Assembly: GCA_011839185.1 (NCBI GenBank)
Contig: GCA_011839185.1_3918.1
DNA length: 64,000 nt
Source: a phage
Reading direction: 5' to 3' (one strand)
In this document: positions 37,432 through 64,000 of the stretch, one piece after another
Position numbering within the stretch: position 1 is the stretch's first letter
Layout of the letters: every line of letters begins with the position of its first letter
Notes under the pieces: model-generated
What the model was told of the DNA's origin: nothing
Seen by the model: only the letters and a program-made list of their open reading frames with translations
Databases searched by the model: none
Position numbers and translations under genes: made by a program

Positions 37432-38847
37432 ATGAGCGAATTATTTAAACATGCGCACCTTCATGCAGGTCGAACTGAAAATGGTGCTGTAAACCATACT
37501 TCATCAATGTCTGCTCTTGTAGACTTTTACAAAGCTGCTGGTTCAAGCCGTAGTAACGTAGAAATCTTACCAGACCTGTTCTACAAAGCTTTGCGTGAGG
37601 ATGTTGATGTTGCAGTTCGTATTTTGCTTCATATGCGAGATGTACGAGAAGGTATGGGTGAGCGTAAAGCCTTCAGAACTGTTTTGCTTCAAGCAATTGA
37701 AGATAAAGTTTTAGAGTCTACGCAGGTTCTTCGCATTATGGATAAGATTGCAGAACTTGGTCGTTTTGATGACTTCAAAATCTTCGTAGGTACTCGTTTC
37801 GAGACAGATGCCTTCAAACATTTAGAAGAAGCATTACTAGACCCTGCAACAGCAGGTTTGGCGGCTAAGTGGTTACCACGAGTCAAACCACGTCATAAGC
37901 AGTTTGTAAAACGTTTCTGCAAGTTTGCCAACTTGAGTGAGAAAGAGTACCGCACACTGTTGTCTGCACTATCTGATACAGTTGAGCAAAAAATCTCTGC
38001 TAATGAGTTTGGTAAGATTGACTACAGTAAGATTCCTTCACTTGCTGCTGCACGTTACCAAAAACTGTTTAACCGTAAAGATGGAGAGCGTTACAAAGCT
38101 TACATCGAGTCCTTATCAAAAGGTGAGGCTAAGATTAATGCTGGTGCTGTTTACCCATACGATGTGATTAAATCTGTCAAGCATGGTAATGCAGATGTTG
38201 CTAATGAGCAGTGGAAAGCACTACCAAACTGGATGGCAGAAGGTGAAAACATCTTGTGTATGTCTGATGTATCAAGTTCAATGTCTTGGGTGAATTTTGG
38301 CTCCATTACTGCTCTGGATATTGGTGTATCACTTGCCTTGTATGTAGCAGAACGCAATACAGGTTGCTTTAAGAATGAGTTGATGGTTTATTCAACAAAC
38401 CCTCACTTCATCGAACTGAGTGGTGATTTACGAAACCGTCATCGTCAGGTGATGCGACACGTTGAATATGGCTCAACTAACTTACAAGCAGCTTTTGACC
38501 GCATTCTTGAGACAGGCAAAAGAAACAACTTGACTCAGAAAGATATGCCAAGTAAGCTTATCATCTTCTCCGATATGGAGTTTAATCAGGTTGATGGGGC
38601 TAACGGTCGTACAAACTTTGAAGCAATTCAGAGTAAGTACAAAAAAGCTGGATATGAGATGCCACAACTGGTATTCTGGTACTTAGCAAACCGTAATGGT
38701 ACTTGCGAAGTATCTGTTAAGGATAACGGTGTAGCAATGGTATCAGGGTTCTCTCCAGCCACTTTAAAAGCTCTGCTTGGTGGTGAGAAGTTTGACCCAA
38801 TCAGTGTAATGCTCAAAGCAGTAATGATTGACCGTTATATCTGGTAA
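37432..38847 (+). CDS. vWA-domain protein with helical N-terminal domain (possible Ro60/Rsr-like or DUF2828-like)
   Basis: 471 aa; MIDAS-type DVSSSM at about residue 279 with downstream T and D residues; ~270-aa helical N-terminal region; directly upstream of the tRNA array. Confidence 0.6.
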   Translation: MSELFKHAHLHAGRTENGAVNHTSSMSALVDFYKAAGSSRSNVEILPDLFYKALREDVDVAVRILLHMRDVREGMGERKAFRTVLLQAIEDKVLESTQVLRIMDKIAELGRFDDFKIFVGTRFETDAFKHLEEALLDPATAGLAAKWLPRVKPRHKQFVKRFCKFANLSEKEYRTLLSALSDTVEQKISANEFGKIDYSKIPSLAAARYQKLFNRKDGERYKAYIESLSKGEAKINAGAVYPYDVIKSVKHGNADVANEQWKALPNWMAEGENILCMSDVSSSMSWVNFGSITALDIGVSLALYVAERNTGCFKNELMVYSTNPHFIELSGDLRNRHRQVMRHVEYGSTNLQAAFDRILETGKRNNLTQKDMPSKLIIFSDMEFNQVDGANGRTNFEAIQSKYKKAGYEMPQLVFWYLANRNGTCEVSVKDNGVAMVSGFSPATLKALLGGEKFDPISVMLKAVMIDRYIW

Positions 38848-38894: not shown

Positions 38895-38955
38895 GTTCTA
38901 CATAGAAACGAAATGAGAGCTTTTCTAAGATACTGAAAAATATTTTAAAAAGTTC

Positions 38956-38985
38956 TTGACAACCACTAAAAAATAATGTTAAAGT
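38956..38985 (+). promoter_or_regulatory. sigma70-like promoter ahead of the tRNA array
   Basis: TTGACA, 18-nt spacer, TAAAGT. Confidence 0.5.
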
Positions 38986-39011
38986 GGTTACATAGAGTTT
39001 GAAAAGTTTAT

Positions 39012-39088
39012 CTCTGTTTAGCTCAGCTTGGTAGAGCGTTCCGTTTGGGGCGGTAAGGCCGGAGGTTCAAGTCCTCCAACAGAGACCA
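39012..39088 (+). tRNA. tRNA-Pro (anticodon TGG)
   Basis: manual cloverleaf: acceptor CTCTGTT/AACAGAG, D-arm GCTCAGCTTGGTAGAGC, T-arm GGAGGTTCAAGTCCTCC, encoded CCA. Confidence 0.8.
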
Positions 39089-39095
39089 AATTAAT

Positions 39096-39173
39096 GTTCC
39101 AGTGGACAAAATGGTAAAGTCACCACTCTTTCAAAGTGGATATTTGAGGGTTCAAATCCCTTCTGGAACGCCA
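39096..39173 (+). tRNA. tRNA-Glu (anticodon TTC)
   Basis: acceptor GTTCCAG/CTGGAAC, anticodon arm CCACT-CTTTCAA-AGTGG, T-loop TTCAAAT, encoded CCA. Confidence 0.75.
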
Positions 39174-39180
39174 GTTTTGA

Positions 39181-39253
39181 CAGAAGACCAATTACAGCAA
39201 ACTTAATCTTATTCATCTGAAGGTAAATCGGACAAAGAAGAGATTTGGTCTGG
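39181..39253 (+). ncRNA. candidate structured element A (hairpin with conserved bulged closing stem)
   Basis: 5' CAGAAGACCAAT ... ATTTGGTCTGG 3'; AT-rich ~48-nt interior; one of four related elements. Confidence 0.35.
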
Positions 39254-39264
39254 TCATTAAGAAT

Positions 39265-39341
39265 TGCGGGTATAGAGAAAGGGCGTCTCACATGTCTCAT
39301 TAGCATGGTATCGGCAGGTTCGACTCCTGCACCCGCCTCCA
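39265..39341 (+). tRNA. tRNA with CAT anticodon (Met or Ile2)
   Basis: acceptor TGCGGGT/ACCCGCC with 1-72 mismatch, anticodon arm CATGT-CTCATTA-GCATG, T-arm GCAGGTTCGACTCCTGC, encoded CCA. Confidence 0.65.
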
Positions 39342-39347
39342 AATTTA

Positions 39348-39411
39348 CAGAAGACCGTTTACAGCAATATTTATTAAATTTTTAGCGGAAAAATTGAAAG
39401 ATACGGTCTGG
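39348..39411 (+). ncRNA. candidate structured element B
   Basis: 5' CAGAAGACCGTTTACAGCAA ... ACGGTCTGG 3'. Confidence 0.35.
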
Positions 39412-39424
39412 TAATACTAAACAT

Positions 39425-39501
39425 GGTTAGGAAGCACATAAGGTATGTGCGGTCGCCTGTTAAGCGAATGGCACAGGGTTCGAATCCCTGACTAACCGCC
39501 A
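39425..39501 (+). tRNA. tRNA-Asn (anticodon GTT)
   Basis: acceptor GGTTAGG/ACTAACC, D-arm GCACATAAGGTATGTGC, loop CTGTTAA, T-arm CAGGGTTCGAATCCCTG, encoded CCA. Confidence 0.75.
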
Positions 39502-39570
39502 AATTTAGGAGAGAAGCGATTGCTCACCGATTTGTAAGGTGCAAGTCCTTAGCCTGAATAGAAATCAAAT

Positions 39571-39658
39571 GTGTCGTTATCCCGTAGATGGTAGCGGTGG
39601 GGACTGTAAATCCCTTGTCATTGAGACTCGGTAGGTTCGACTCCTACACGGCACACCA
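39571..39658 (+). tRNA. tRNA-Tyr (anticodon GTA), long variable arm
   Basis: 88 nt; acceptor GTGTCGT/ACGGCAC, loop CTGTAAA, T-arm GTAGGTTCGACTCCTAC, encoded CCA. Confidence 0.75.
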
Positions 39659-39663
39659 ATAAA

Positions 39664-39741
39664 GGTTATGTAGTTTAATTTGGTTAAAATACTCCCCTGT
39701 CACGGGAGATGATGAGGGTTCAAATCCCTTCGTAACCGCCA
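39664..39741 (+). tRNA. tRNA-Asp (anticodon GTC)
   Basis: acceptor GGTTATG/CGTAACC, arm CTCCC-CTGTCAC-GGGAG, T-arm GAGGGTTCAAATCCCTT, encoded CCA. Confidence 0.8.
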
Positions 39742-39769
39742 ATTTTGAGAGGGCTATTTAGCCCCTCCC

Positions 39770-39797
39770 TTAAAGGGTTCTTACGAGTATCCTTTAA
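39770..39797 (+). promoter_or_regulatory. conserved hairpin with GTTCTTACGAG loop (copy 1 of 4)
   Basis: TTAAAGG-GTTCTTACGAGTAT-CCTTTAA. Confidence 0.4.
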
Positions 39798-39802
39798 AGG
39801 AG

Positions 39803-39876
39803 CAGAAGACCAAATACAGCAAGTTACTTAAAATTTCAAGCCAATTTAATTTTGAAAAATTTAAAACTTGGTCTGG
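39803..39876 (+). ncRNA. candidate structured element C
   Basis: 5' CAGAAGACCAAATACAGCAA ... CTTGGTCTGG 3'. Confidence 0.35.
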
Positions 39877-39889
39877 CTCAACAAATTTA

Positions 39890-40020
39890 CAGAAGACCGT
39901 TTACAGCAAAACTTAAACAATCTATTTCTCGGTAAAGAAAAGGCGAAGGTTCGATTCCTTCACTCGGCAGATGTCGAGTTGGTGTAATGGTAGCACTTAA
40001 GATGATAAACAACGGTCTGG
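39890..40020 (+). ncRNA. candidate structured ncRNA D: closing stem as A-C, enclosing a permuted tRNA-like module
   Basis: CAGAAGACCGTT ... AACGGTCTGG; inside in order: T-arm GAAGGTTCGATTCCTTC, 7-bp acceptor-like hairpin ACTCGGC-AGAT-GTCGAGT, D-arm GTGTAATGGTAGCAC. Confidence 0.45.
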
Positions 40021-40021
40021 T

Positions 40022-40165
40022 AATTATCTTTGTAGATAAGTTATTAAGCTTACCTGTGAGTATGCGACCACAAAGGGTGAAAGGGTAAATTCTAGATTTA
40101 AACCTAAAAAGGCACATCGCTACAGACCTTAAGCAAGTCTGGGTAGCTTATCTACAAAGATAATT
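40022..40165 (+). repeat. long inverted repeat (19-bp perfect arms) enclosing about 106 nt
   Basis: AATTATCTTTGTAGATAAG (40022-40040) and its exact reverse complement (40147-40165). Confidence 0.6.
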
Positions 40166-40169
40166 TAAT

Positions 40170-40245
40170 GGAAGTGTAGCAGAATGGTGATGCGGCAGAC
40201 TTTTAATCTGACAGGCGATGGGTTCGAATCCCTCCACTTCTACCA
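40170..40245 (+). tRNA. tRNA-Lys (anticodon TTT)
   Basis: acceptor GGAAGTG/CACTTCT, loop CTTTTAA, T-loop TTCGAAT, encoded CCA; T-stem imperfect in my parse. Confidence 0.65.
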
Positions 40246-40323
40246 AATTCACCCTTAACTGAGAAACACCTGCGCGGCTGGAAACACCCACTCAACAGTT
40301 TCTCTAACTAGGGTACTTATTCT

Positions 40324-40400
40324 GGTTCAGTCGCAGATAAGGTAATGCAAGGGTCTCATAAGCCCTATGAATGTGGGTTCGATTCCCATCTGAACCTCCA
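40324..40400 (+). tRNA. tRNA with CAT anticodon (Met, fMet or Ile2)
   Basis: acceptor GGTTCAG/CTGAACC, anticodon stem with three G-C pairs (AGGGT/GCCCT), loop CTCATAA, T-arm GTGGGTTCGATTCCCAT, encoded CCA. Confidence 0.7.
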
Positions 40401-40416
40401 ATTCGTTGGTGATATT

Positions 40417-40902
40417 ATGTTTTGTGCTAATAAAGATTGTGACAACAAAGCCGTTAAAGGTGGAAAGTATTGTTCACGCTCTTGTGCTGCAAGGGTAAAC
40501 AACAAGAGTCATCCAAAAAGAAGACAAGAAGGCTCTTGTCATTCATGTGGAAAGCAGACACCAAAATCAAGAAAGTATTGTGATGAATGTATTTCAAATG
40601 GTATTCTGAAACAATACAAAAACCCCGATGAAGAAAAGAAAGCGAAGTCACAACACGTTAAAAAGTCTCGTGACAAACTTAAGAGGGTTTTAGTTGATTA
40701 CAAAGGTGGTTGTTGCTCAATTTGTGGATACAATAAGTGCATAAAGGCTTTAGAGTTTCACCACTTAGACCCTAATACAAAGGACTTCACAGTAGGACAA
40801 AAACACTTCTCTATAGAGGTAATGAAGTCTGAAGTTGATAAGTGTGTATTACTGTGTGCAAATTGCCACAGAGAGGTACACGAAGGGGTAACAAAGCTGT
40901 GA
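40417..40902 (+). CDS. HNH homing-endonuclease-like protein with N-terminal zinc ribbons (start trimmed past the tRNA)
   Basis: C-terminal EFHHLDP...LLCANCHREVH HNH motif; several CxxC pairs; ORF-track start 40345 lies inside the tRNA. Confidence 0.65.
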   Translation: MFCANKDCDNKAVKGGKYCSRSCAARVNNKSHPKRRQEGSCHSCGKQTPKSRKYCDECISNGILKQYKNPDEEKKAKSQHVKKSRDKLKRVLVDYKGGCCSICGYNKCIKALEFHHLDPNTKDFTVGQKHFSIEVMKSEVDKCVLLCANCHREVHEGVTKL

Positions 40903-40971
40903 AAGCACATATGGATGTGCATTCGGCTGATAACCGAAAGGCAGAAGGTTCGAATCCTTCTCACAGTACCA
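40896..40971 (+). tRNA. tRNA-Ile (anticodon GAT)
   Basis: acceptor GCTGTGA/TCACAGT, D-arm GCACATATGGATGTGC, arm TTCGG-CTGATAA-CCGAA, T-arm GAAGGTTCGAATCCTTC, encoded CCA; first 7 nt overlap the HNH stop codon. Confidence 0.75.
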
Positions 40972-40986
40972 ATTTCAATAAAGTTG

Positions 40987-41015
40987 TTGACATTGAGATG
41001 TGACTACTTTATAGT
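40987..41015 (+). promoter_or_regulatory. sigma70-like promoter inside the tRNA array
   Basis: TTGACA, 17-nt spacer, TATAGT. Confidence 0.55.
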
Positions 41016-41182
41016 AACCTTAGTTTTCGTTGCGTAGCGTCTATTTTGCAAATTTAAAATAAATGCAAACGACAATGTTTTTCTGGCAGTAGCTTGATAG
41101 GCTAAACACCAGTGAGGTCTTCCAATCCCTCATCAAAGAATTTGGCGTACTCGCCCACGGTATGATTAATAAGGTGGGCATC

Positions 41183-41210
41183 TTTAAGGGCTTTCTAAGA
41201 GAGTCTTTAA
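41183..41210 (+). promoter_or_regulatory. conserved hairpin-motif variant (copy 2 of 4)
   Basis: GGCTTTCTAAGAGAGTCTTTAAAG, about 10 nt upstream of tRNA-Arg. Confidence 0.3.
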
Positions 41211-41218
41211 AGATTAAT

Positions 41219-41295
41219 GCACCCTTAGTTCAACTGGACAGAGCAAATGACTTCTAATCATTGAGTTACAGGTTCGAATCCTGTAGGGTGTGCCA
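41219..41295 (+). tRNA. tRNA-Arg (anticodon TCT)
   Basis: acceptor GCACCCT/AGGGTGT, arm AATGA-CTTCTAA-TCATT, T-arm ACAGGTTCGAATCCTGT, encoded CCA. Confidence 0.8.
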
Positions 41296-41437
41296 ATTAG
41301 TTAGCAGATTACTTAGACGACCTTATCGGGTCTCCGTGTAAGGAGGTGGTCTGTATCTCATGTTTTCCAGAACATGTAAATAATCTGAGAAGGGGCTTTA
41401 CAGTGTTGAGATAACAGGGTAAGCTTCGAATTATAGT

Positions 41438-41520
41438 ATGGGACGATGTTAAGACTCTAAGGCATGAGCAACGGCTTCCAACACCGTTTCAAAGGGGTTC
41501 AACTCCTCCGTCCCATGCCA
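41438..41520 (+). tRNA. atypical tRNA-like gene, anticodon CCA (Trp-type), about 7 extra nt between acceptor and D-arm
   Basis: 3' two-thirds parse canonically (arm ACGGC-TTCCAAC-ACCGT, T-loop TTCAACT, acceptor GTCCCAT, CCA) but the complementary 5' acceptor sits 7 nt too far upstream. Confidence 0.3.
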
Positions 41521-41533
41521 AAGTCTTATTAGG

Positions 41534-41621
41534 GGTAGGTAGCGGCTAATGGTAGCCAAACTGTCTTGAAAACAGTTGCCACTGTAGAGATACGGTGAGG
41601 GTTCGACTCCTTTACTTACCG
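41534..41621 (+). tRNA. tRNA-Ser (anticodon TGA), long variable arm
   Basis: 88 nt; acceptor GGTAGGT/ACTTACC, 3-bp D-stem, arm ACTGT-CTTGAAA-ACAGT, T-loop TTCGACT; no encoded CCA. Confidence 0.65.
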
Positions 41622-41843
41622 CCTAATAAGATTTAAAGCCAAGCTTCATTCGGATGTTGCTTTGGTATCCCTCGTGTATTGTCGTACACACTGATAAAGC
41701 ACCTAGTAGGTGTCACGGAGAAGAGATAATATCAAGCTCTCCAAAGGTTCTAGTCACCGGATTAAACAAGACTATGCAAAGACCTATTTAGGTCTTTTTA
41801 GAGGGCTTCTAAGGTTATTACAGCTTGTTGTGGAACCTTGTTG

Positions 41844-41868
41844 CTTAGGTTCTTAGAAGTTCTCTAAA
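41844..41868 (+). promoter_or_regulatory. conserved hairpin-motif variant (copy 3 of 4)
   Basis: TTAGGTTCTTAGAAGTTCTCTAA, about 10 nt upstream of a tRNA. Confidence 0.3.
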
Positions 41869-41878
41869 AAGATTTAAT

Positions 41879-41955
41879 GCACCTATAGCCCAACTGGTAG
41901 AGGCAGCAGACTTAGAATCTGCTCAGTGTGAGTTCGAATCTCTCTAGGTGTACCA
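41879..41955 (+). tRNA. tRNA with Leu anticodon TAG, class-I-length variable loop
   Basis: perfect anticodon stem GCAGA/TCTGC with loop CTTAGAA; Leu-like D-loop AACTGGTAGA; discriminator A; 5-nt variable loop. Confidence 0.6.
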
Positions 41956-41962
41956 AATTAAT

Positions 41963-42038
41963 GCAGGTGTAGCAAAATGGTTATGCGGCTGACTCTTAAT
42001 CAGTAAGACGATGGGTTCAATTCCCTCCACCTGTACCA
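41963..42038 (+). tRNA. tRNA-Lys (anticodon CTT)
   Basis: acceptor GCAGGTG/CACCTGT, loop CTCTTAA, T-loop TTCAATT, encoded CCA. Confidence 0.65.
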
Positions 42039-42044
42039 AACATT

Positions 42045-42120
42045 GGGGTCATAGTTTATATGGTTAAAATTCGAGTTTTGCAAACTTGGGAACTGAGTTC
42101 AATTCTCAGTGACTCCACCA
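42045..42120 (+). tRNA. tRNA-Ala (anticodon TGC)
   Basis: acceptor GGGGTCA/TGACTCC with G3-U70 wobble (Ala identity element), loop TTTGCAA, T-arm CTGAGTTCAATTCTCAG, encoded CCA. Confidence 0.8.
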
Positions 42121-42125
42121 ATTAG

Positions 42126-42201
42126 TGCATCCATAGTTTAAACGGGAAAATTACAGTCTTCCAAACTGAGGTTGAGGGTTCGATTCCCTCTGGATGCTCC
42201 A
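42126..42201 (+). tRNA. tRNA-Gly (anticodon TCC)
   Basis: acceptor GCATCCA/TGGATGC, loop CTTCCAA, T-arm GAGGGTTCGATTCCCTC, encoded CCA. Confidence 0.75.
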
Positions 42202-42208
42202 AATTAAT

Positions 42209-42284
42209 GCTCCTATCGTATAATTGGCTATTACGGTTGCCTTGTAAGCAACTTATCAGGGTTCGAATCCTTGTGGGAGCACCA
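42209..42284 (+). tRNA. tRNA-Thr (anticodon TGT)
   Basis: acceptor GCTCCTA/TGGGAGC, arm GTTGC-CTTGTAA-GCAAC, T-arm CAGGGTTCGAATCCTTG, encoded CCA. Confidence 0.8.
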
Positions 42285-42287
42285 ATT

Positions 42288-42376
42288 CAGAGGTCAAGTG
42301 AAAGACCGCTTTGAGTCAACTGAAGACCGTAACAAATTCCACGGAGTTGAGTTAGCGGCACAACTCCAGACCTCTT
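42288..42376 (+). ncRNA. candidate structured element E between tRNA-Thr and tRNA-Val
   Basis: 7-bp closing stem AGAGGTC/GACCTCT enclosing an internal hairpin GGAGTTG...CAACTCC and a GAAGACCG word shared with elements B and D. Confidence 0.3.
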
Positions 42377-42380
42377 TCAT

Positions 42381-42455
42381 ACTCGCTTAGTTTATATGGT
42401 AAAACATCACCCTTACAAGATGAAGAAAAAGGTTCAAGTCCTTTAGTGAGTACCA
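42381..42455 (+). tRNA. tRNA-Val (anticodon TAC)
   Basis: acceptor ACTCGCT/AGTGAGT, loop CTTACAA, T-arm AAAGGTTCAAGTCCTTT, encoded CCA. Confidence 0.7.
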
Positions 42456-42456
42456 T

Positions 42457-42534
42457 GTTCCAGTATCCCAATTGGCAGAGGATGCAAGCTCAAACCTTGT
42501 ACTAGTGACGGTTCGAATCCGTCTTGGAACACCA
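42457..42534 (+). tRNA. tRNA with Leu anticodon CAA, class-I-length variable loop
   Basis: acceptor GTTCCAG/TTGGAAC, Leu-like D-loop CAATTGGCAGA, loop CTCAAAC, T-arm GACGGTTCGAATCCGTC, discriminator A, encoded CCA. Confidence 0.55.
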
Positions 42535-42539
42535 ATTTT

Positions 42540-42615
42540 GCAGGATTAGTTCAAATGGATAGAGCAACAGTCTACGAAGCTGTTAGTAGGGGTTCGAATC
42601 CCTTATCCTGCGCCA
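42540..42615 (+). tRNA. tRNA-Arg (anticodon ACG)
   Basis: acceptor GCAGGAT/ATCCTGC, arm ACAGT-CTACGAA-GCTGT, T-loop TTCGAAT, encoded CCA. Confidence 0.75.
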
Positions 42616-42633
42616 GATAAGCAAGAGGAATTT

Positions 42634-42876
42634 ATGCAAACATTAATCGTCGTTGAACATGAAAATCCCAACAGTATTGAGTTTGTAAGGGTTCCCACTA
42701 TAGATACTCACATTTTCTTGAAAGTCGGATGGGAATGCGACCCGATAAAAGTAGGAAAATTTCTTGGTCATTACTTTGGTGGAAGACAATTTAAAAGTAT
42801 CAATTTTGAGACAGTATTACCAGAAAACTCAGAAACAGACAATAATACTTACCTCCTTACGAGGATTAGACAATGA
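42634..42876 (+). CDS. hypothetical protein inside the tRNA array
   Basis: ORF track 80 aa; does not overlap any tRNA. Confidence 0.45.
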   Translation: MQTLIVVEHENPNSIEFVRVPTIDTHIFLKVGWECDPIKVGKFLGHYFGGRQFKSINFETVLPENSETDNNTYLLTRIRQ

Positions 42877-43430
42877 GATACTTAAAATATGTTTCATGGA
42901 TTTTCTTAGCTTTGTTAGAACCATTTGCAGCAACCCTAGCAGTCATCTTAGCACCTTTCGTAGTTCCATTCTACAGTGAGAAGAAAGGGCATCTACCTTT
43001 TGGATTCAGATGGATGGAGACCTATGACAACCCTATTGATGGTGACAAAGGCCACGTTGAGAGATGGGCTAAGATTAGAAAGATTGGTAAGCTTGGTGTC
43101 TACATGCAGAGAGTTGGATGGCTCTGGAGAAACAAAGCTTATAACTTCTCTTACCATGTATTAGGAAGAGATGTAAAAGACGTTACTAAGTGGAAAGGTA
43201 ATATCAACGTAAGTTCTAACCCTGAAGATAATCAAACAGGTTATCTCCTAATGTGGAATAGCAATGCTTGGGGATTATTTGCTTTTATCCCATCAATTAA
43301 AGTCTTTGGTAAACAGTTTTACTGGAGAATTTATATTGGATGGAAACTAAAAAGTGTTGTCCCAGAAGAAAGAGCATTCTCAAGGGAAAGAGTTATGTTG
43401 GCATTCTTTATTCATCCACTGAGAAAGTAA
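42873..43430 (+). CDS. hypothetical protein with N-terminal hydrophobic segment
   Basis: 185 aa; Trp/aromatic-rich; start overlaps the upstream stop. Confidence 0.5.
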   Translation: MRYLKYVSWIFLALLEPFAATLAVILAPFVVPFYSEKKGHLPFGFRWMETYDNPIDGDKGHVERWAKIRKIGKLGVYMQRVGWLWRNKAYNFSYHVLGRDVKDVTKWKGNINVSSNPEDNQTGYLLMWNSNAWGLFAFIPSIKVFGKQFYWRIYIGWKLKSVVPEERAFSRERVMLAFFIHPLRK

Positions 43431-43438
43431 AGATTTAA

Positions 43439-43514
43439 AGGGGATTAGTTTACAAGGTTAAAACCTCGGTCTTTGAAATCGAAGAAGTTGGTTCAATTCC
43501 AACATCCCCCGCCA
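43439..43514 (+). tRNA. tRNA-Gln (anticodon TTG)
   Basis: acceptor AGGGGAT/ATCCCCC with weak 1-72 pair, arm TCGGT-CTTTGAA-ATCGA, T-arm GTTGGTTCAATTCCAAC, encoded CCA. Confidence 0.7.
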
Positions 43515-43516
43515 AT

Positions 43517-43595
43517 GCTCCATTACTCCAATTGGCAGAGAGGCCAGACTTAAAATCTGTGTTATGTATCGGTTCGAATCCGATATGGAGTACCA
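43517..43595 (+). tRNA. tRNA with Leu anticodon TAA, short variable loop
   Basis: acceptor GCTCCAT/ATGGAGT, Leu-like D-loop CAATTGGCAGA, loop CTTAAAA, T-arm ATCGGTTCGAATCCGAT, discriminator A, encoded CCA; anticodon stem imperfect. Confidence 0.5.
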
Positions 43596-43600
43596 AATTT

Positions 43601-43675
43601 AGCGGTATAGCATAACTGGCAATGCAACAGTCTCTGAAGCTGTCCTATTAAGGTTCAAATCCTTATGCCGCTGCC
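43601..43675 (+). tRNA. tRNA-Gln (anticodon CTG)
   Basis: acceptor AGCGGTA/TGCCGCT, arm ACAGT-CTCTGAA-GCTGT, T-arm TAAGGTTCAAATCCTTA, encoded CCA. Confidence 0.7.
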
Positions 43676-43680
43676 ACTTC

Positions 43681-43704
43681 TAAGGGTTCTTACGAGAGTC
43701 CTTA
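43681..43704 (+). promoter_or_regulatory. conserved hairpin with GTTCTTACGAG loop (copy 4 of 4)
   Basis: TAAGG-GTTCTTACGAGAGT-CCTTA just upstream of tRNA-His. Confidence 0.4.
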
Positions 43705-43707
43705 AAT

Positions 43708-43783
43708 GTGGCCTTATCATAAATGGTAATGACCCATGCTGTGAACATGGTCTATACGGGTTCAAATCCCGTAGGTCACCCCA
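43708..43783 (+). tRNA. tRNA-His (anticodon GTG)
   Basis: acceptor GTGGCCT/AGGTCAC, arm CCATG-CTGTGAA-CATGG, T-arm ACGGGTTCAAATCCCGT, discriminator C, encoded CCA; no encoded G at -1. Confidence 0.7.
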
Positions 43784-43789
43784 ATTTAT

Positions 43790-43865
43790 AGTCCAAGTAG
43801 CTTATATGGTTAAAGCGCGTGTCTGAAAAACATGAGAAGAGGGTTCAAATCCCACTGGACTACCA
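43790..43865 (+). tRNA. tRNA-Phe (anticodon GAA)
   Basis: D-arm GCTTATATGGTTAAAGC, arm CGTGT-CTGAAAA-ACATG, T-loop TTCAAAT, CCA; acceptor pairing imperfect so ends are approximate. Confidence 0.6.
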
Positions 43866-43881
43866 ATTTCAAAGGTGCTTA

Positions 43882-44616
43882 ATGAAAGAGATGACAGAAC
43901 AAGGTAAGGAGATTTTTAATCTCTTAAAAACCGGTAAAGGGTTCTCTAACCCACTTATTACTGGTGCAGCAGTTCTCGGTGGAACCGTAGCTGCTTCTAC
44001 ATCACTTGTAAGCTCTATTAGTTCTGTAACAGACCCTACAATGAAGGAGAAACTTGTTGCTGCTGGACTTACAACAGTCCTTCTAAACAGCTTTACAACA
44101 AGCCTTACAAGCACTACAGCAACTACTAAGACCCTAACAGACTACGGTCAAAAGTCTATTGATGAGTTTTCATCACGTATGCAGGTAGCAAAGGGATACT
44201 CCAATGTTATGGGTGCAGCAGGAGAACAAGTTGGTTGTACACCATTCAGTGGTATTATGGGTGTTGCTACAGAGTATGGTCAAAAAGCTATTGACATGAT
44301 GAACAGTACACTAGATAGTGTTAATGGTGTGTTAAGTGACTTACAAGATGCTATTGACAAAGGTCTTGATACTATTTCTGATTTAGCTGAGCAAGCTGTT
44401 AGTAAGATTAATGAAGGTATTTCAAAAATTACAGCTTATGCAGATGAAGTTGTGCAGATGATTGAAGAAGAAGCTGCTCTTATTGCAGAGTACCTTAAAA
44501 CGAATATCAATGGGTTCTTAGCAGGTATCTTACCAGACTGGTTTGATGATGCCTGTAAAACTGGTGTAATTGACACTATTGCAACACCAGAAATGAAGAA
44601 CGCATTACAGAAATAA
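43882..44616 (+). CDS. hypothetical protein (Ser/Thr-rich segment then helical region; start trimmed past tRNA-Phe)
   Basis: ATG at 43882 preceded by AAAGGTG; ORF-track start 43819 lies inside the tRNA. Confidence 0.5.
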   Translation: MKEMTEQGKEIFNLLKTGKGFSNPLITGAAVLGGTVAASTSLVSSISSVTDPTMKEKLVAAGLTTVLLNSFTTSLTSTTATTKTLTDYGQKSIDEFSSRMQVAKGYSNVMGAAGEQVGCTPFSGIMGVATEYGQKAIDMMNSTLDSVNGVLSDLQDAIDKGLDTISDLAEQAVSKINEGISKITAYADEVVQMIEEEAALIAEYLKTNINGFLAGILPDWFDDACKTGVIDTIATPEMKNALQK

Positions 44617-44618
44617 AT

Positions 44619-44711
44619 GGAAGATTAACCCTAAAAGGTAAGGGAGCAGTTTGCTAAACTGCCAGTAGCTGAGAAATCGGTGTACCAGTTCAAGTCTGGT
44701 ATCTTCCTCCA
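44619..44711 (+). tRNA. tRNA-Ser (anticodon GCT), long variable arm
   Basis: 93 nt; acceptor GGAAGAT/ATCTTCC, arm GCAGT-TTGCTAA-ACTGC, T-arm ACCAGTTCAAGTCTGGT, encoded CCA. Confidence 0.75.
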
Positions 44712-44715
44712 ATTT

Positions 44716-44791
44716 GAATCCGTGACAGAAATGGCTATGTGCCTGTCTGCAAAACAGGTTTATAAGGGTTCGAGTCCCTTCGGATTCTCCA
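44716..44791 (+). tRNA. tRNA-Cys (anticodon GCA)
   Basis: acceptor GAATCCG/CGGATTC, arm CCTGT-CTGCAAA-ACAGG, T-arm AAGGGTTCGAGTCCCTT, encoded CCA. Confidence 0.8.
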
Positions 44792-44828
44792 AGTTATTTT
44801 ACTCTCTCTCAATTAAAATAATAATAAT

Positions 44829-44888
44829 GCCCTGCTATAAGTATTCTTCCTTTCGCTACCGAAGAGTATTTTTAGACAGGGCTTTTTT
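44829..44888 (+). terminator. rho-independent terminator (long nested hairpin) ending the tRNA array
   Basis: GCCCTG ... CAGGGC with inner inverted repeat, followed by TTTTTT. Confidence 0.55.
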
Positions 44889-44953
44889 ACAGAGTTATAC
44901 TTTATAAGAAGACTTATACAGTATGTCTCTGACGTACATTGTGGTTTCTCCTT

Positions 44954-56493: not shown

Positions 56494-61877
<5,384 letters not shown>

Positions 61878-61878
<1 letters not shown>

Positions 61879-63347
61879 TGGCAGGATTAACTACAACAGG
61901 ATTACAAACTCTAAGATATCAGGAAATTTTTGATAATATCAAATCAAGACTTCTTAGAGATATTTCACCAAACCTTGACGTCTCTGAAGATAGCCAATTA
62001 GGTCTCTTCCTAGCTTCAATTGCAAGGTCTTTAGCAGATACACACGAGATTCTATCAGAAATCTATGACGGCGGGACAATTGACAAGGCTGAAGGATTTA
62101 ACCTTGATGATATTACAGCTTTGAATGCTGTATACAGATATGTTGCTCAGGCAACAAGGGGTCAGGTTGAGTTCACTGGAACAACTGGTGCTACCATCTC
62201 TTCAACAACAAGATTGAGAAGTACTGCTGGAAATATCTTTTATCCAGTTAACAATATTACCCTTACCCCATCATATTGTGTTGAAGCTGTTCTTGAAGTT
62301 AACTCTTTACGAACTGATGCAGATTATGTTATTATTATTGATAACGTTATTTTCTCATATAAACCAACCTCATCAGACACAATTACCACACTCCTAACTA
62401 AATTAGCAGAGGCTATTAATGGTGGTATTGTAGCAAAAGCAGAAGTTATCAATGATGGAGCCGCATTAAGAGTCTATAAAGATGAGGGTGATATCATTGC
62501 AAGAACAAATCCTATGGTTGTCACTGCGACAACGTTTCTGACCTTTACAAAGATTACAACTATCTCAGATGTAGTAGCTGAAGAGGTTGGTGCTATTCCT
62601 GCTTTAGCTGGAACTCTTATTGAGATTGAGACAACTGTTGATGGTCTTGACAGCATCTATAACAGGTATGACTTAACGACTGGTAGAAACGAAGAAACTG
62701 ACACAGAACTTAGACAGAGATATTTAGAATCCTTAGCAGTTACTGGTGTAGGGACTTTGGATGCAATTGTAGCTGCTGTTAAAAGAGTTCAAGGTGTCTC
62801 AGATGCTTCAGGTGTTGAAAATGATACTGAAGAGACAAACTCAGAAGGTCTTCCACCAAAATCTTTTAAGATTGTTGTAGTTGGTGGTCAAAATGATAAT
62901 GTTGCTCAAGCAATCTGGGATACAAAACCTGCTGGTATCAGGGCTTATGGCTCAATTTTTGGTACAGCCTATGATTTAGGTGGTCTGGCACATAATATCT
63001 ATTTTAGCAGACCAACACCAAAATACGCATTTGTTAAGGTGTCTTACTCATTATATGACGAAGAAAGTTTGACAATCCCTGAAGAAGATATCAGAGATAG
63101 TATTGTGCAAGGTATTAACGCCTACGGAAGAACTCTTAAGGTTGGTAATGATGTTATCCCTAACAGAATTTATGGGTACATCTATGACGTAATCAAAGGT
63201 ATTGAGATTAATGAGGTGAAAGTAGCATTATCAAACAGCCAATCAGTTCCACCTAGTGACGGACAATATACTACAGCAAGAATTACTGTTGACGGTGACC
63301 AATATACTGTTTGGGAAAGTAGCCAGTATACCATCACTAAGGAGTAA
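61878..63347 (+). CDS. putative baseplate J-like protein
   Basis: 489 aa; by position and size only. Confidence 0.4.
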
Positions 63348-63350
63348 TAA

Positions 63351-64000
63351 TGTTTGAAAAGATTGATAGTGTTTATTATAAAACACTTGATGAAAGGACT
63401 GTAACACAGTTTAAAGATAAATTTATCTATACAAGTATCTTGAAAGCAATCACTGATGAGCTACAAACACTAGAGGATGTTTGCTGGCAGATGCACACAG
63501 AGAGAAATATCAGGACGTCAGTAGGTCAACAACTTGATAATATTGGCTCACTGATTAAAGTTCCTAGACCTTTAGGTGCTGATGATGAAACATACAGAGC
63601 TATGCTTTATATCCAAATCTTCCTAAGACGTTCTGATACTACTCCAACATTCTTGCAAAAAGCAATTATGACATTGTATGGTGCAGCTTTCTCTCAGATT
63701 TTTGAGCATATTACTCCTAAGACTGGTGGTATCGTTATCCGTATTAATACTAGAAAAAGCGTTCTTGATGCTGCATATACACTGTCAAAGATTTCTGCAA
63801 CAACCACTGGTTCCGCTGTTATCTTAAGAGATGTTACTTTAAATGGGACTGCTTGGACACCTGTAGAGGTTGCTGATTCATCACTTGCTATTGTTGATGA
63901 TAAAGAGAACTGGTTTGTAACTGATGCTAACAGGGGTCTGGTAACAAATAACACTGGTGGCTCTCTGGAGTCCAACCTAGTAGGGAGTCTTGCAGATGCT
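63351..64000 (+). CDS. putative tail fiber or baseplate protein (3' end beyond the window)
   Basis: ATG at 63351 behind AGGAG; open to the window end with no stop; not in the ORF track because incomplete. Confidence 0.45.

Follow-up and report, generated by a model that had tools for sequence, protein, structure and literature searches.

Leucine tRNA genes without a long variable arm in the tRNA array of a Felix O1-like phage

Leucine tRNA genes of the window

The 64,000-nucleotide (nt) stretch of phage DNA analysed here (GenBank assembly GCA_011839185.1, contig GCA_011839185.1_3918.1; hereafter the window) carries, within a large tRNA array, three tRNA genes with leucine anticodons and without a long variable arm. 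ARAGORN, run on the whole window, called tRNA-Leu(UAG) at 41879–41955 (77 nt, being 74 nt plus an encoded CCA; score 119.8), tRNA-Leu(CAA) at 42457–42534 (78 nt, 75 nt plus CCA; 117.0) and tRNA-Leu(UAA) at 43517–43595 (79 nt, 76 nt plus CCA; 108.2), all on the plus strand and precisely where an earlier reading made from the letters alone (the sequence-only reading) had placed them. With the Rfam tRNA model RF00005, which has a gathering score of 29 bits, the three reach 57.3, 43.6 and 47.5 bits, respectively. Misassignment of the anticodon loops can be ruled out, as ARAGORN and Rfam agree with the sequence-only reading on anticodon and isotype; the anticodons UAG, CAA and UAA occupy loop positions 34–36 (ARAGORN), each in a 7-nt loop (CUUAGAA, CUCAAAC and CUUAAAA).

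The variable regions of the parsed cloverleaves are UCAGU (5 nt) in Leu(UAG), ACUAGU (6 nt) in Leu(CAA) and GUUAUGU (7 nt) in Leu(UAA), whereas a canonical class II tRNA-Leu has more than 10 nt with a stem at this place. The D-loops are AACTGGTAGA and AATTGGCAGA, or in RNA notation AACUGGUAGA or AAUUGGCAGA, and all three genes have A73 as discriminator. The short variable region, the total length of 77–79 nt, the A73 and the leucine-type D-loop had all been described by the sequence-only reading, and the parsed structures concur. The three genes are thus tRNAs with leucine anticodons, a leucine-type D arm and A73, and have no long variable arm.

Leu(UAG) begins with a G1·U72 pair and has U8, A9 and A26, a D stem of three base pairs (G10 C11 C12 / G23 G24 C25) with C13·A22 unpaired, the D-loop AACUGGUAGA, and a variable region ending in U48. 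In its T arm (41928–41944) the second pair of the stem is a U·U mismatch; the same mismatch occurs at the same position in the Leu(tag) gene of a T5-like phage, and the T stem of a Pantoea phage Leu(tag) is irregular there too. Leu(CAA) has G1-C72, U8 A9, the D arm UCCCAAUUGGCAGAGGA, U48 and A73. In Leu(UAA), which again has G1·U72, U8 A9, U48 and A73, the D arm is CUCCAAUUGGCAGAGAG with U11-A24 in place of C11-G24, and positions 27 and 43 are mismatched.

Three other genes of the array serve as internal controls. tRNA-Tyr(GUA) (39571–39658; 88 nt), tRNA-Ser(UGA) (41534–41623; 90 nt) and tRNA-Ser(GCU) (44619–44711; 93 nt), all on the plus strand, were called by ARAGORN with their long variable arms kept, as the sequence-only reading had also stated (88–93 nt). 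Since all three leucine genes are short, all three serine and tyrosine genes are long, and the pattern recurs in unrelated phages, the short arm is due neither to chance nor to a wrongly assigned anticodon.

Comparison with E. coli tRNA-Leu

A BLASTN search of 5,426 complete Escherichia coli genomes with Leu(UAG) gave no match. With the variable regions excised, the window genes are 72–80% identical to other short-arm leucine tRNAs and 54–64% identical to the five isoacceptors of E. coli K-12. Because of this low identity and the lack of any E. coli match to Leu(UAG), a recent origin from host genes by deletion can be dismissed, and recent capture of an E. coli tRNA-Leu gene is ruled out on the same grounds.

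Much of the architecture is nevertheless shared with the class II tRNA-Leu genes of E. coli (leuQPV, leuT, leuU, leuW, leuX and leuZ). All three window genes possess A14-A15, U48 directly before the T stem, a D arm of 17 nt in the G18G19/YAGA register of the five E. coli isoacceptors, and the T-loop TTCGAAT; the host genes likewise have A73, U8, A14-A15, U48, a standard T-loop and a D arm of 17 nt in which three pairs form the stem and 13·22 is unpaired. The same anticodons are found in three host isoacceptors and G1·U72 in two. The differences lie in the variable arm, which is 13–15 nt in the five E. coli isoacceptors and 5–7 nt in the phage genes, and in the core, where E. coli has G9, G12-C23 and R13·A22 and the phage A9, C12-G23 and C13·A22. 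This switch holds across 54 viral short-arm and 32 viral long-arm leucine tRNAs, the long forms having G9 in 32/32 cases and G12-C23 in 31/32; judged from sequence, it is plausibly the repacking needed in a tRNA without the arm. The identity of 72–80% within the family and the coordinated change of the core make the window genes members of a pre-existing short-arm lineage. The sequence-only reading had termed them truncated-arm leucine isoacceptors, which is right insofar as the arm is genuinely short but not if a local deletion is meant.

The anticodon loops also differ from those of the E. coli isoacceptors at positions 32, 37 and 38 (window positions 41911–41917, 42489–42495 and 43549–43555). 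Leu(UAG) has CUUAGAA, with A37, where the host has UUUAGGU, with G37, an m1G37 site; in the CUCAAAC loop of Leu(CAA), C38 breaks the A36-A37-A38 motif, which is linked to i6A37 and to methylation by TrmL (PMC9976931); and the CUUAAAA loop of Leu(UAA) has C32 where the host has U32. These differences predict modification states unlike those of the host tRNAs. Divergence of the anticodon loop has been reported for phage tRNAs (PMC10264068).

A family of short-arm leucine tRNAs

Most short-arm leucine tRNAs share a signature comprising U8 A9, a 3-bp D stem (N10 C11 C12), unpaired C13·A22, the D-loop AAYUGGYAGA, an xCAGU-type variable loop, U48 and A73. The corresponding pattern TANCCCAAYTGGYAGAGG is matched exactly by Leu(UAG) and Leu(CAA), and Leu(UAA) departs from it by the compensated U11-A24 pair. 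The variable region of the 54 viral members is most often 5 nt long (44 tRNAs), with 6 nt in six, 4 nt in two and 7 nt in two.

Covariation was assessed in an alignment of 50 distinct short-arm leucine tRNAs, consisting of phage and array members. In the arm-less cloverleaf 98.2% of helix cells are paired, as against 33–45% with slid partners, and 362 double-sided changes are spread over 18 of the 20 pairs, each of the four helices showing compensatory change. Covariation scores 1.00 in the actual pairing and 0.12–0.17 (approximately 0.14) in the slid controls, and in 500 shuffles the observed value was never attained. The window genes are thereby shown to belong to a short-arm, or type I, tRNA-Leu family with a strongly covarying cloverleaf.

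A scan for TANCCCAAYTGGYAGAGG over one genome per GTDB species yielded at least 120 loci. Among the matches listed, all 110 pattern-carrying tRNAs are leucine tRNAs with a variable loop of 4–6 nt; most of these stand alone in chromosomes of Actinomycetota, in genera such as Nocardia, Mycobacterium, Gordonia, Corynebacterium, Rhodococcus, Amycolatopsis and Bifidobacterium, and are for the greater part Leu(UAA) and Leu(CAA). A minority of the matches listed lie in arrays of 13–26 tRNAs in other phyla. The family is hence not phage-specific, the same signature being chromosomal in Actinomycetota.

Occurrence among phages

The region is 95–97% identical to Felixounavirus genomes, i.e. Felix O1-like myoviruses of Salmonella, E. 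coli, Shigella and Citrobacter, with 349 phage records matched, and the window is that of a Felixounavirus. Of the 264 phage records that match Leu(UAA) taken alone, 216 do so at 99% identity or more, and of the 292 that match Leu(CAA), 248 reach 95% or more; Leu(UAG) is present at 95% identity or more in a subset of 85 phage records. As the 3.4 kb around the leucine genes have no record at 99% identity, against these 216 and 248 near-identical records, the genes are more conserved than their neighbourhood and are shown to be under strong purifying selection. Citrobacter phage Mordin and the like carry a different, equally short Leu(tag). In some records the short-arm leucine genes are annotated as "tRNA-OTHER" or "possible pseudogene", as in Erwinia phage phiEa21-4 (L005:5489–5565) and several felixounaviruses; with pipelines sometimes writing "tRNA-OTHER", leucine tRNAs may be under-counted in phage tRNA inventories. 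The 147-kb GenBank record GU169904.1, "Staphylococcus phage SA1", is 96.3% identical to the Felix O1-like tRNA region at 59898–63407 and is probably chimeric or contaminated.

With the 77-nt Leu(tag) gene as query, 274 records matched in total. The matches to annotated tRNA-Leu genes at approximately 75–82% identity, without gaps across the variable region, include phages of Mycobacterium, Streptomyces, Gordonia, Enterococcus, Bacillus, Pseudomonas, Klebsiella, Cronobacter, Pantoea and Acinetobacter, and one crAss-like phage. In nine fetched phage loci and the window, a sample biased by having been chosen for similarity to a short leucine gene, 20 of 21 tRNA-Leu have a variable region of 4–8 nt, every tRNA-Ser is long-armed, and so is tRNA-Tyr wherever it was called. 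A sample independent of leucine was drawn from IMG/VR with T-arm motifs plus a following G73-CCA as the anchor, a combination that tRNA-Leu with A73 cannot match; it holds 809 tRNAs from 145 tRNA-bearing loci. Here 32 unique tRNA-Leu are short and 30 long, compared with short forms in 4/51 unique tRNA-Ser and 3/23 unique tRNA-Tyr, mostly low-scoring calls. Six of these loci contain both classes of tRNA-Leu. Loss of the arm is common in viral tRNA-Leu and is specific to leucine.

Among phages of enterobacteria, short-arm tRNA-Leu occurs in at least three unrelated groups, the Ounavirinae, the T5-like Demerecviridae and the Vequintavirinae. The 81-nt Leu(tag) of the T5-like Escherichia phage TrudiGerster (L007:6354–6434) has a variable region of 9 nt, UCUUCGGGU, and a core of the long-arm type (G9, G12-C23 and A13·A22). 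From its sequence this gene looks like an intermediate in, or an independent instance of, the shortening of a class II tRNA-Leu, and its combination of a long-form core with a 9-nt stub suggests that shortening has taken place more than once.

The pair G1·U72 is found in 34/54 short and 14/32 long viral tRNA-Leu as against 82/591 viral non-Leu tRNAs and, among the matches listed, 12/95 solitary chromosomal short-arm genes (Fisher p ~1e-14 and ~5e-10). It was rejected as a marker of the short-arm class, being enriched in both viral leucine classes, which do not differ significantly, and present in leuZ and leuU of E. coli.

Leucine tRNAs of type I in other systems

Almost all bacterial tRNA-Leu are of type II (PMC6614811). 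The premise of the sequence-only reading that bacterial tRNA-Leu is a class II tRNA is too broad, since the present family is chromosomal in many Actinomycetota and biochemical work on Streptomyces coelicolor has described a type I tRNA-Leu(CAA) with the variable loop ACAGC (Fan et al., Nucleic Acids Res 2019, PMC6614811). That tRNA shares with the window genes a leucine anticodon, A73, a canonical elbow and a 5-nt xCAGy loop (compare UCAGU in Leu(UAG)), and it likewise coexists with long-arm tRNA-Ser and tRNA-Tyr. It is placed in the family through its published variable loop and its actinobacterial relatives; actinobacterial chromosomal genes bearing the D-arm signature of the window have the same architecture. 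There are three differences. The S. coelicolor gene is chromosomal and its LeuRS (leucyl-tRNA synthetase) is adapted to it, whereas the window genes are borne by a phage whose E. coli host has no such tRNA; S. coelicolor has C48, while the phage genes and, among the matches listed, 95/95 other actinobacterial copies have U48; and a single type I isoacceptor accompanies four long-arm ones in S. coelicolor, while all three leucine tRNAs of the window array are short.

Animal mitochondrial type I tRNA-Leu also combines a leucine anticodon and a short variable loop with A73 and A14 as identity elements. Mitochondrial tRNA-Leu is, however, described as structurally floppy (PMC9976931), whereas the phage tRNAs have a standard G18G19, the T-loop TTCGAAT and stable helices. 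A one-sentence remark in the literature mentions a short-variable-loop tRNA-Leu(TAG) in a horizontally acquired tRNA cluster of mycobacteria (Behra et al., BMC Evol Biol 2019, PMC6582537); like the window genes this tRNA is array-borne and contrasts with the long-arm isoacceptor of its host. The remark concerns a bacterial chromosome and includes no analysis of identity elements or of phages. Comparable array-borne copies are present in six of the GTDB loci (L138, L148, L154, L206, L218 and L224).

Short-arm tRNA-Leu as such is therefore already known from animal mitochondria and S. coelicolor. No earlier description in phages was found in the searchable open literature; the older sequencing of T5 tRNAs lies outside that scope, so that an earlier report is possible. 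Within the same literature the term "type I tRNALeu" is confined to the Streptomyces paper (PMC6614811), and the tRNA reviews and phage-tRNA papers checked, including PMC9976931, PMC7609411 and PMC10264068, contain no discussion of short-arm tRNA-Leu in phages.

Leucine identity and proposed function

In textbooks and recent reviews a long variable arm counts among the defining features of bacterial tRNA-Leu. The elements that specify leucine in E. coli are A73, A15-U48, G18G19 and A20a (PMC9976931), together with A14 and U54:A58 (element list from PMC9976931 and PMC6614811). The sequence and folding of the long arm are uncorrelated with leucylation, and arm-less variants of E. coli tRNA-Leu stay active, while for SerRS the size of the arm is a major identity element (PMC9976931). 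The whole published set (A73, A14, A15:U48, the G18G19 register, A20a and U54:A58) is present by sequence in all three window genes. In 54 unique viral short-arm tRNA-Leu, A73 is found in 54, A14A15 in 47 and U48 in 48, compared with approximately 36–38% each for A14A15 and U48 in 591 viral non-Leu class I tRNAs.

It is likely that the window genes are working leucine tRNAs of type I which are charged by the host LeuRS and supplement the UUA-, CUU- and CUA-rich decoding of the phage. In infected E. coli or Salmonella the three tRNAs would be released from the array transcript by processing and would then receive leucine from the host enzyme. LeuRS would read A73 and the hinge and elbow of the L-shape (A14, the A15:U48 Levitt pair, the G18G19 register, A20a and U54:A58) instead of the anticodon or the long arm; since all of these elements are kept, it could charge the short-arm forms. 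Only tRNA-Leu would lose the arm because SerRS and TyrRS use it as an identity element and LeuRS does not need it. The UAA anticodon would then decode UUA and UUG, CAA would decode UUG, and UAG would decode CUA and CUG and possibly CUU, which would be the codons that an AT-rich phage over-uses relative to its host.

CUG makes up about half of the leucine codons of E. coli. In the 64 open reading frames (ORFs) of the window, leucine accounts for 8.0% of codons and all six of its codons are used, in the proportions UUA 27%, CUU 27%, CUG 15%, UUG 13%, CUA 11.5% and CUC 7%. Leucine codon use in the phage thus leans towards codons read by the UAA, CAA and UAG anticodons and away from the dominant codon of the host.

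Three points weigh against the proposal that the host charges these tRNAs for decoding. The type I tRNA-Leu(CAA) of S. coelicolor accepts leucine from the LeuRS of that organism and from the one of human mitochondria, but could not be leucylated by E. coli LeuRS, which is reported to charge the long-arm kind only; Streptomyces LeuRS is presented as the sole prokaryotic LeuRS that charges both types (PMC6614811). The agreement with codon usage is a generic explanation of phage tRNAs and leaves the absence of the arm unexplained. Lastly, the window covers 64 kb of a genome of approximately 86–88 kb, and the negative result for a phage factor that would help charging covers the ORFs around the array and the ten largest ORFs of the window. 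Regarding the first point, the S. coelicolor tRNA, which is the only natural type I substrate tried with the E. coli enzyme, carries C48 (its position 15 is not stated; PMC6614811), and the failure may be due to this C48 and hence to a missing A15:U48 Levitt pair. Standing against the published restriction is the persistence of short-arm tRNA-Leu in the enterobacterial phage groups named above. From these sequence features we infer charging with leucine in E. coli or Salmonella. The implication is that enterobacterial LeuRS uses short-arm tRNA-Leu in vivo, or else that the phage tRNAs do something besides ordinary decoding. The natural sequences offer a ready series for defining a minimal leucine identity set, with U48 versus C48, the remodelled 9/12:23/13 core and G1·U72.

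Alternative explanations

The existing label "tRNA-OTHER" on one of the genes in some GenBank records, the U·U mismatch in the T stem of Leu(UAG) and the 27:43 mismatch of Leu(UAA) might be taken to indicate pseudogenes, or long-arm tRNA-Leu genes recently damaged by an internal deletion. Such decay has hardly any likelihood. Near-identity in over 200 phage genomes, closer than that of the DNA around the genes, and compensatory changes found family-wide in each of the four helices effectively refute it, and it also conflicts with the ARAGORN scores of the leucine genes (108–120), which lie inside the range of the other 23 tRNAs of the array (102–123), with a remodelled core common to chromosomal actinobacterial genes and with the 54–64% identity to host tRNA-Leu. 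Just as improbable is a recoding of leucine codons by tRNAs which have leucine anticodons but are charged with another amino acid. The class I shape is indeed the norm for tRNAs other than those for leucine, serine and tyrosine, and in yeast mitochondria CUN codons have been reassigned through an unusual tRNA(UAG) (PMC7609411). However, the D arm and hinge, with A73, are specifically those of tRNA-Leu; G3·U70, the alanine determinant, is not seen in the acceptor stems of the window leucine genes; a member of the type I structural class has been leucylated experimentally (PMC6614811); and the six leucine codons stand at an ordinary total frequency in genes with clear homologues, such as those for ribonucleotide reductase, terminase and portal protein.

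An arm lost to advantage in a conflict over tRNAs would leave translation as the function and add a reason for the loss: the phage tRNAs would be spared by a factor keyed to the class II shape (a defence nuclease of the host, for instance, or an attack on host tRNA-Leu that the phage induces), yet still be charged by the host LeuRS, so that leucine decoding continues once the long-arm tRNAs of the host are disabled. Were this true, a corollary would be that E. coli LeuRS accepts a natural type I tRNA-Leu given A15:U48, contrary to the published statement. In its favour are the proportion of short arms among unique viral tRNA-Leu (32/62), set against the near-universal type II form in bacteria (PMC6614811); the carriage of short-arm tRNA-Leu by unrelated enterobacterial phages (Ounavirinae, T5-like, Vequintavirinae) when E. 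coli, by the BLASTN search with Leu(UAG), has none; the apparently independent shortening of a type II tRNA-Leu in a T5-like phage; and the differences of the window anticodon loops from those of the host at positions 32, 37 and 38. Type II tRNAs are reported to be cleaved selectively by mammalian Schlafens; in bacteria, Schlafens and other anticodon nucleases act as effectors against phages, and phage tRNAs are known to escape such nucleases (PMC13056530; PMC10264068). The literature examined, however, names no bacterial nuclease specific for the class II shape or for tRNA-Leu. A class II-specific bacterial Schlafen was considered and set aside, as PMC13056530 gives no such specificity and describes cutting of the anticodon arm, discussed with tRNA-Ala; Salmonella HepS was ruled out as a tRNA-Leu anticodon nuclease because its targets are the tRNAs for Thr, Ile and Ser. 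The serine and tyrosine tRNAs of the same arrays keep their arms, some phage arrays (L023, L063, L090) hold both leucine classes, and no conflict is needed to maintain the short-arm family, since it is an ordinary chromosomal gene in Actinomycetota. Escape from such a factor is accordingly regarded as unlikely. Even less probable, though not to the degree of decay or recoding, is that the host LeuRS does not charge the window tRNAs at all, so that they would require a phage helper or have a non-translational role as a decoy for tRNA-targeting enzymes, a regulator or a processing signal in the array. The in vitro failure of E. coli LeuRS on a natural type I tRNA-Leu (PMC6614811) and the gene for a TROVE/Ro60-like RNA-binding protein directly upstream of the array speak for it, and phage tRNAs are reported to be able to neutralise defence systems. 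A decoy, on the other hand, would have no need of the full E. coli identity set that is conserved here; the three anticodons are intact and together read most or all leucine codons; the acceptor stems covary and CCA is encoded; no synthetase-like ORF was found among the window ORFs inspected (those around the array and the ten largest); and the sole substrate on which E. coli LeuRS failed has C48.

The tRNA array and its surroundings

The array extends from 39012 to 44791 on the plus strand and consists, according to ARAGORN and Rfam, of 26 tRNA genes for 19 amino acids (tryptophan being absent) with a few small ORFs interspersed. Every gene is on the plus strand and nearly all encode the CCA end. 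Spacers are as short as 1–8 nt; tRNA-Val, for example, ends at 42455 and Leu(CAA) begins at 42457. No long-arm leucine gene or remnant was detected by ARAGORN in 38900–44900 at thresholds of 90% and 80%.

An HNH homing-endonuclease-like ORF lies inside the array at 40345–40902 (plus strand), with PHROG matches over residues ~77–184. Since the ORF as listed overlaps tRNA-Met (40324–40400), the real start codon probably lies downstream of the listed one. Directly upstream of the array, the ORF at 37432–38847 (plus strand) matches DUF2828 and DUF7788 as well as phrog_850, "RNA-binding protein" (TROVE/Ro60-like). The same annotated layout, with an RNA-binding-protein gene followed by a tRNA array, is found in Citrobacter phage Mordin, and in Streptomyces phage Daubenski an "RNA-binding protein" likewise precedes the tRNA array; a functional link between Ro-like proteins and phage tRNA arrays is a possibility. 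Among the ORFs around the array and the ten largest of the window, neither a phage LeuRS nor any other synthetase-like or tRNA-modifying ORF was found; the products of these ORFs include ribonucleotide reductases, NAMPT, rIIA/rIIB, terminase, portal, tape measure and baseplate proteins, the HNH endonuclease and the TROVE-like RNA-binding protein.

Some unusual tRNAs of other isotypes were also encountered. The tRNA-Asn(gtt) of the T5-like phage (L007:3480–3562) is 83 nt long and has a variable region of 12 nt, which is unusual for asparagine. A low-scoring tRNA-like candidate (84.7) whose anticodon reads CUA was reported by ARAGORN at 80% thresholds at 41424–41495 of the window (plus strand), between tRNA-Arg and tRNA-Ser; it is probably spurious or else the relic of a gene. 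tRNAs with a CUA anticodon, i.e. amber suppressors, which ARAGORN labels "Pyl", were seen elsewhere, one in Acinetobacter phage vB_AciJM_313 (L008:1754–1827) and 31 in the first IMG/VR sample, many of them from one metagenome; they are consistent with phages in which a stop codon is recoded.

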